Shown here: positions 62,782-63,910 of the stretch, in pieces | Layout of the letters: every line of letters begins with the position of its first letter | Numbering within the stretch: the first letter of the stretch is position 1 | Virus record (IMG/VR): IMGVR_UViG_3300048930_000242 | Span: 64,001-128,000 of that record | Strand: one strand, 5' to 3' | Origin: a virus | Length of the DNA stretch: 64,000 nt | The notes under the pieces: model-generated | What the model saw: the letters and a program-made list of their open reading frames with translations, nothing else | What the model was told of the DNA's origin: nothing | The model's database searches: none | Position numbers and translations under genes: made by a program

Positions 62782-62857
62782 TGGTCTCTGAGAGAGGACT
62801 CGAACCTCCAACCCCTGCGCCCCAAACGCAAAGCTCTACCAATTGAGCTACTCAGAG
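62782..62857 (-). tRNA. tRNA-Pro(TGG)
   Basis: TTTGGGG loop, C1:G72, CCA. Confidence 0.92.
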
Positions 62858-62882
62858 AGAAAACTTTACAAGTAGATGGTTC

Positions 62883-62926
62883 ATTCTACCACCAAACCAT
62901 CTGCTTGTACAGCTTTGAAGTGTAAC
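62883..62926 (-). promoter_or_regulatory. Early promoter copy driving the tRNA array
   Basis: TGTACA-N17-TAGAAT. Confidence 0.75.
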
Positions 62927-62928
62927 AA

Positions 62929-63830
62929 GGTAGCCTGAGAATACGGCTTCCGGTGGTTGCCTTTCGGAGCATTATCACCATGTTGCGACACGGCGTTCTC
63001 TCCTTATCCACCTCCAGCAAGGAGGTATCAACCGTAGCGGCCTTTTTAGACTGGTGGCGTTTCCAGTGTCGTCATGTTCTATTCCAGGCCTTGTCTACCG
63101 CCTACCTTGCGACGAGCAGTACGGGCTGCTACACCCTACGTGCGACTCTTCCTGAACAACCTTTGACTTTGCGATTCTTAGGTTGACTTGATTCACCCGA
63201 AGGTGTCAAGTATTACGCTACTTTCAAACATGACCGGCAACGACTTTGCGTTTTAGTTGATGTGGGATTTGAACCGCACGCCAATTCCTTTAGATGGAAT
63301 TGCTCTACCAATGAGCTAATCGTAACCTCCTGAAGACGAGCGTTGCCGTGACTTCATGGACTTTTGGTCCACAAAATACCACCCGCCTAGTATCCTTTCG
63401 ACCGCTAAGTCTAGTCAGATCAGTTGTACCTTCTCGGCTCTTGCGAAGCCGAAACCTTACAACCTGGTGAACCGCTCTTGGCCGCTAAACCTCGAACTTT
63501 GATCACCTTCATGTTCAGCTTTGCTACTCGGTCTGTTTCGCTATGATATGCGAGTGCGAATCGCCAGGAGTCTTTCTACCAGTTGGCCTTGGACTCTTTT
63601 CTCATCAAACCTTCGCGGCTATCTCCGTCACCGAAGAGGCGCTTGTGGCGCCAGCGTTGCATGATTGTTTAGATGGACCTTTCGGCGGTGGTCGGGGAGG
63701 CCTTCCACCTTTCTGCACCTTGCGGTACAACATCCTTTCATCTTTTCACTTTCGATCAAGATGTGCTAAACCAGACGGATTTCTCCGTTTCGTCCTTTTT
63801 GAAGGGAGGACTCTTCAGTAGTTCCCTTTG
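62929..63830 (-). ncRNA. Large (~900 nt) structured RNA, GOLLD-like
   Basis: ORF-free, dense GNRA/UUCG hairpins, inside a phage tRNA array, embedded tRNA-like element; family inferred from size and context only. Confidence 0.65.
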
Positions 63831-63835
63831 AAGCT

Positions 63836-63910
63836 TGGCGCGCCGCGTAGGACTCGAACCCACATCTTTCGGCTTTGGAGGCCGACATCTTGCCATTAGA
63901 CGAACGACGC
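63836..63910 (-). tRNA. tRNA-Trp(CCA)
   Basis: TCGGC-CTCCAAA-GCCGA, CCA. Confidence 0.92.

Follow-up and report, generated by a model that had tools for sequence, protein, structure and literature searches.

A GOLLD RNA with a tethered, acceptor-truncated tRNA-like domain and a predicted 5′ hammerhead ribozyme in the tRNA array of a T4-like phage

The locus lies in a virus record of 153,340 bp with direct terminal repeats and a G+C content of 51%, of which we analyzed bases 64001-128000 (64,000 nucleotides, referred to here as the window; coordinates are positions in the window unless stated otherwise). The phage encodes T4-type topoisomerase II subunits and a nicotinamide phosphoribosyltransferase (NAMPT), and its genes also include an Rnl1-like RNA ligase, phosphoesterases, a peptide deformylase, and homing endonucleases. 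The topoisomerase of its nearest isolate relatives shares only about 35% identity. All 35 tRNAs found by ARAGORN, as well as a permuted tmRNA, are carried on the − strand, which is also the strand of the GOLLD RNA described here; the element that hosts this GOLLD is the tRNA array of a 153-kb T4-like phage. Beyond the array, two paralogous homing endonucleases, a phosphoesterase, the peptide deformylase, and the Rnl1-like RNA ligase are encoded at L121:1913-7217 (genome 128913-134217), where the ligase and phosphoesterase would fit a role in tRNA repair. Also outside the window, at genome positions 129763-129836, ARAGORN lists a tRNA whose two-base anticodon ('at') is undetermined.

Two tRNAs recognized by both ARAGORN and Rfam flank the GOLLD gene. 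Upstream is tRNA-Trp(CCA) (63836-63910, − strand), whose encoded CCA end lies 11 nt before a predicted hammerhead ribozyme, and downstream is tRNA-Pro(UGG) (62782-62857, − strand). Just before tRNA-Pro, a 3′ trailer (62858-62931, − strand) folds into a long imperfect hairpin followed by UUUU (−22.9 kcal/mol, z = −2.1), which may be a terminator or a processing site. A weak promoter-like match on the − strand (62911-62883) overlaps this hairpin.

The conserved 3′ domain of the GOLLD (62932-63389, − strand) matches Rfam model RF02032 over its whole length (positions 1-416 of 416) with 200.3 bits (E = 5e-55), above the gathering score of 150 bits, for a model that spans only the conserved 3′ half of GOLLD. 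Nearly all model helices are paired in the window's sequence, and in the RF02032 alignment the pseudoknot GUCAUGUU/AACAUGAC is formed by strands that are perfectly complementary yet differ from the consensus. The variable 5′ domain (63390-63773, − strand, 384 nt) starts with UGGUUUAGCA and was delimited by nhmmer homology to the GOLLD 5′ domains of other loci, which begins after the hammerhead. It shares conserved blocks in alignment with the locus of a second phage, L319, and its minimum free energy (MFE) of −127.6 kcal/mol is better than that of shuffled sequences (z = −2.65). GOLLD proper occupies 62932-63773, about 842 nt in total.

An earlier note, made from the letters of the window, had proposed an ORF-free GOLLD-like RNA over 62929-63830 and had left the family assignment unverified. 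The full-model Rfam match now establishes the family, and the segment is indeed free of ORFs longer than 92 aa. The proposed span holds for the GOLLD at 62932-63773, but the first 57 nt (63768-63824) form the predicted hammerhead, which that reading missed. The note had also described a GGCAACG/CGTTGCC helix enclosing a tRNA-like element. GGCAACG (63341-63347) pairs with CGUUGCC (63236-63242) to close the variable linker (63236-63347, − strand), and among 42 homologues all seven pairs form in 35, with 28 distinct sequence versions of the helix; the mean is 6.81 pairs, compared to 5.83 when partners are swapped between sequences. Judged by this covariation, the helix is a true GOLLD helix. We regard the window's element as a genuine GOLLD RNA that carries a tRNA-like domain in tethered form.

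No close relative of this GOLLD was recovered from the collections that we searched. Public phage and plasmid records hold only GOLLD cores of about 70% identity, in Stenotrophomonas and Xanthomonas jumbo phages and a Pseudomonas megaplasmid. Searches of viral contigs with two neighboring proteins returned no closer relatives, and searches of metagenome contigs with an exact 27-mer and a scaffold pattern returned no closer GOLLDs. A pattern on the GOLLD 5′ start recovered only L251, which lies on the same record as L319, and one chance match.

GOLLD RNAs have been known since 2009 (described in Weinberg et al. 2009) as large phage and prophage RNAs near tRNA islands, and their assembly into an RNA cage since 2024-25. 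The cryo-EM structure of env-38 GOLLD is a 14-mer cage that encloses the variable linker, and its authors note that this linker sometimes holds phage tRNAs (Kretsch et al., bioRxiv 10.1101/2024.12.08.627333). The family, its tRNA-island context, and tethered tRNAs are thus all published, and the window's GOLLD joins a known kind. It resembles RF02032 GOLLDs and env-38 in its 3′ domain and pseudoknot, variable 5′ domain, length above 800 nt, phage origin, tRNA-island location, and a variable linker able to hold a tRNA. It differs in the hammerhead that precedes the 5′ domain and in a linker domain with a nonsense anticodon and a truncated acceptor. The closed multimeric cage itself has been seen by cryo-EM for other GOLLDs.

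GOLLDs in Mycobacterium tRNA arrays likewise embed a tRNA or pseudo-tRNA, according to what PMC6582537 and Morgado et al. 2020 (as cited in PMC12990946) say of these arrays. A review that proposes 'inhibited storage' cites a Mycolicibacterium GOLLD whose J13/15 contains tRNA-Phe, and in M. aubagnense no separate transcript was seen from the pseudo-tRNA inside GOLLD. Those elements and the window's share a location within a tRNA array, horizontally mobile in the mycobacterial case, and a (pseudo-)tRNA in the single-stranded linker J13/15. The mycobacterial RNAs belong to another host group and another GOLLD subfamily, carry tRNA-Phe or a pseudo-tRNA, and have no hammerhead reported in what these sources say of them. 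ROOL RNA (PMC5737381) is a further large, ornate phage RNA found near tRNAs, and it also forms a cage with a disordered internal linker; its sequence and fold are unrelated to GOLLD, and the window's element has no match to the Rfam ROOL model.

In the gap that separates tRNA-Trp from the GOLLD, a descriptor scan and the Rfam Hammerhead_1 model both point to a type I hammerhead ribozyme (63768-63824, − strand). It consists of stem I (GAACUA/UGGUUU), the core CUGAAGA, stem II (GUCCU/AGGAC), GAAA, stem III (CGGA/UCCG), and a U-C cleavage site, with cleavage predicted between 63774 and 63773. The core is complete (C3 U4 G5 A6 N7 G8 A9, G12 A13 A14, A15.1-U16.1, H17) and stem I is open. Across 1.9 Mb of phage tRNA-array DNA, the descriptor scan returned no other compact hammerhead, where 0.2 were expected per shuffle. 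A second phage carries a type I hammerhead at the same place (L319:1060-1111, on the record of L150 and L251; 26 bits, E = 0.001). The predicted cut lies 395 nt upstream of the GOLLD 3′ domain in that phage and 384 nt in the window, both GOLLDs start with UGGU(U/A)UAGCA, and in the pairwise alignment the hammerhead cores align, with compensatory changes in all three stems. As a general feature of GOLLD loci we rejected the hammerhead: the 192 records scanned gave one match, to which L319 is added, and only these two hammerhead-bearing GOLLD loci are found when five loci fetched later are included.

The match could be due to chance, or the ribozyme could be an inactive relic, with the GOLLD 5′ end produced by host RNases after processing of tRNA-Trp. 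Such a reading is favored by an Rfam score of 24.1 bits (E = 0.004), below the cut-off of 34, by the absence of a hammerhead at most GOLLD loci, and by the folding of the isolated segment, whose MFE structure is not the hammerhead (its z of −1.25 is uninformative). We nevertheless consider it improbable, as every invariant core nucleotide is present alongside three stems counted as 6, 5, and 5 pairs, only about 0.016 chance matches are expected per genome of this size, and the second phage retains the arrangement at a similar distance with compensatory stem changes. Type I hammerheads also recur directly after tRNAs in phage arrays (about ten cases), and the type is common in viral contigs. 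The GOLLD 5′ end is thus most likely freed by the predicted hammerhead cleavage.

Hammerheads of this type have been linked in published work to the processing of phage transcripts. The window's ribozyme shares the core CUGANGA...GAAA...UH and three stems with the type I hammerheads of phages and prophages (Perreault et al. 2011, PMC3088659), and it likewise sits between transcription units of a long phage transcript, where a role in transcript processing is presumed; it differs in lying between a tRNA and a giant non-coding RNA, whose 5′ end it would define. We found no link between hammerheads and GOLLD in the literature searched, and what is new relative to known systems is, on these sequence comparisons, a hammerhead leading a GOLLD in two phages. 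Separately, at least 119 viral contigs (L198-L316) contain the classical CUGANGAGUCC...GGACGAAAC core; 106 of 135 such cores are compatible with a type I hammerhead and 24 with type III, and none of those contigs that were scanned reached the Rfam gathering score. On the record of L319 (G001), another type I hammerhead, the first of that locus, directly follows tRNA-Gln (L319:857-1000); its predicted cut falls 1 nt short of the 5′ end of the tRNA that comes next (Rfam tRNA at 929-1000), which looks like a ribozyme-made tRNA 5′ end inside a phage array.

Within the closed linker lies the tRNA-like domain (63251-63326, − strand), at the position that the RF02032 model treats as an unpaired variable stretch. 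The earlier note had recognized here a tRNA-like element with anticodon CUA, bulged acceptor and T stems, and no CCA, and each of these features was recovered. Rfam tRNA model RF00005 matches it locally on the − strand (63259-63321, 44.9 bits, model positions 5-66 only), with the anticodon at + strand positions 63292-63294; a purpose-built model, R1, scores the domain at 76 bits, and ARAGORN calls no tRNA in the element. The D stem (GCUC/GAGC) and anticodon stem (AUUCC/GGAAU) are regularly paired, the anticodon loop AUCUAAA is canonical (7 nt, with U33, A37, and A38), and the elbow nucleotides of the D-loop and T-loop are intact. The T stem, GUG(C)GG/CCCAC, contains one bulged C, the acceptor has only 3 canonical pairs (GAU/AUC) that can be extended only across a 2-nt bulge, and the 3′ end lacks CCA. 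All six window tRNAs in the comparison set have 7 acceptor pairs and NCCA. Folding the segment alone was uninformative (MFE z = −1.3). Its anticodon stem is identical to those of the nested elements L126 (anticodon GUU), L125 (UGU), and L180 (UCU), so that different anticodons sit on one scaffold.

To place this domain among related ones, we gathered GOLLD loci from IMG/VR by sequence patterns, 20 of which were confirmed as GOLLD by Rfam. Of the first 119 loci, only L034, L037, and L074 hold a tRNA at this position, and those of L034 and L037 are complete and end in ACCA. The latter two (L034:3092-3167 and L037:2671-2747) belong to nearly identical GOLLDs of another subfamily and differ in anticodon (GAU vs. 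GUU). Patterns anchored both to the tRNA-like domain and to the GCAAAGUC motif downstream of it then yielded 43 distinct nested elements, which share one context.

Across the alignment of these 43 elements, the D, anticodon, and T stems are paired at 97, 96, and 93%, respectively, and double-sided changes number 252 against 87 in shuffles, which shows, at the level of sequence comparison, strong purifying selection on the fold of the nested class. The acceptor behaves differently along its length, with pairs 4-7 paired at 88-93% and pairs 1-3 at only 37-53% (n = 43). Free-standing tRNAs of these loci have a full 7-bp acceptor in 269 of 318 cases, nested elements in 3 of 43 (p = 1e-24); an encoded NCCA is found in 179 of the 318 and in none of the 43 (p = 1e-14). 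Anticodon loops of a length other than 7 nt are more frequent in the nested elements (7/43 vs. 11/318, p = 0.002). Either the D arm or the T loop was held constant in the search patterns, so that the census frequencies are not unbiased; the nested anticodons comprise UUU (9), GUU (6), UCU (5), UCC, UGU, UUA, and CUA (2 each), plus singles, and 8 of the 9 one-step neighbors of UUU are present. Four of the 43 nested elements have a nonsense anticodon, compared to 2 of 318 free-standing tRNAs, a share not above the 3/64 expected without constraint (p = 0.09-0.22). Two nested elements, L183:7214-7289 and L149:1629-1704, are identical but for one anticodon base (UGA vs. UGG). The acceptor-less nature and the anticodon drift of these tethered domains are what the census adds to the literature that we found.

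TAG ends 19 of the 169 long ORFs of the window's phage and is therein an ordinary, if rarer, stop. Recoding of TAG was rejected for this phage, in which reading TAG as sense brings no special gain, and for the 363-kb phage that carries the second nested CUA element (L152, locus L321, G004:C1:252271-253088), which gave no recoding signal. The 363-kb phage also encodes a free-standing canonical tRNA(CUA) about 290 nt downstream of its GOLLD, with ACCA and a 7-pair acceptor (5 G-C and 2 G-U); the proximity of this gene keeps some room for a link to amber decoding. Canonical amber-suppressor tRNA genes were further observed within about 2 kb of GOLLD genes at L122:11826-11902 and L125:660-736, both with the loop CUCUAAA, a 6-7 bp acceptor, and ACCA. 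The window's element shares with such phage suppressor genes a CUA anticodon within a phage tRNA cluster, and has neither the 6-7 bp acceptor nor the encoded ACCA of the true tRNA(CUA) genes of L122, L125, and G004.

An amber-suppressor role, implied by the earlier description of the anticodon, would require the nested element to be cut from the GOLLD precursor, perhaps only late in infection, then given a CCA end, charged, and used to read UAG. The canonical CUA loop and intact elbow would suit this, as would the complete nested tRNAs of L034 and L037 and the true tRNA(CUA) genes of some GOLLD phages. We judge it very unlikely and find no support for it: the domain lacks CCA, forms only three canonical acceptor pairs, has a bulge in its T stem, goes uncalled by ARAGORN, and matches Rfam only locally, while the true tRNAs of this phage all have 7 pairs and CCA; the outer acceptor pairs and CCA are missing across the whole nested class, in which the anticodon drifts; and TAG, an ordinary stop here, shows no recoding signal in either CUA-bearing phage. 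The short acceptor stub and missing CCA instead suggest a domain selected for tRNA shape rather than for decoding. On a different reading, the domain has lost any function of its own in this phage and is decaying toward the kind of degenerate linker that the most similar GOLLDs show. Few nested elements score lower, its T stem carries an extra base, and its acceptor has only 3 pairs; in L100, L122, and L124, which are among the most similar GOLLDs retrieved, the linker contains no tRNA-like domain, and no more than 3 of the first 119 loci had such a domain. This outcome is less remote than suppression, and still rather unlikely in our view, given that pairing is still perfect in the D arm, the anticodon arm, and most of the T arm, that the elbow nucleotides are kept, and that the fold of the nested class is under strong purifying selection. 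We conclude that the CUA of the window's domain most likely reflects anticodon drift on a retained scaffold and not a working suppressor.

Contigs from RNA libraries of four studies (sediment, freshwater, soil, and wastewater) are 98-100% identical to this GOLLD over 62978-63192, 63308-63495, and 63501-63735, including contigs on 63395-63495 and 63501-63735 of the 5′ domain at that same identity. Such contigs, with ends and strand that cannot be read and possible DNA carry-over, are silent on cleavage or excision, and they point to a possible expression of the GOLLD. No RNA-library contig covered 63736-63835, and none of high identity covered the tRNA-like domain. A contig of run X1, about 90% identical to the GOLLD core (63213-63257), leads past 63257 into a different, canonical-looking T arm; a different nested tRNA in the contig of a relative suggests that the content of the linker is exchangeable.

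Taken together, we favor, at a probability of roughly three in four, a GOLLD gene with a hammerhead-freed 5′ end and a retained tRNA-shaped domain whose CUA is a product of drift. The GOLLD (62932-63773, − strand, roughly 840 nt) would be transcribed together with the neighboring tRNAs, and the hammerhead (63824-63768) would cut between 63774 and 63773 to free the GOLLD 5′ end. By homology to the published structure, the RNA would then assemble into a multi-copy cage with its variable linker facing inside. The tRNA-derived cloverleaf in the helix-closed linker would stay part of the GOLLD RNA, keeping its D, anticodon, and T arms and elbow nucleotides on a short acceptor stub that ends without CCA. 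The earlier picture of a scaffold displaying a tRNA-like cargo matches the published hypothesis based on cryo-EM.

As to function, we put forward as speculation, less probable than not by a wide measure, that GOLLD-tethered cloverleafs are a distinct class of never-released tRNA mimics, in which selection would preserve the elbow and the anticodon arm and not the charging end, and which would act as a caged bait or sponge for a tRNA-binding factor. Some phages would release the cage RNA from the tRNA transcript by hammerhead. One candidate target would be a host anticodon nuclease directed against Lys, Asn, or Arg tRNAs, as the anticodons of those tRNAs dominate the nested class.

A published idea holds that the cage stores tethered phage tRNAs. 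Because the tRNA shape is kept while the charging end is lacking and anticodons drift even onto stop codons, our census argues against storage of usable tRNAs in this GOLLD subfamily and points to partners that recognize tRNA shape. The hammerhead, for its part, gives a precise predicted 5′ end for the native GOLLD RNA and would be a new example of ribozyme-based processing in phage tRNA operons.
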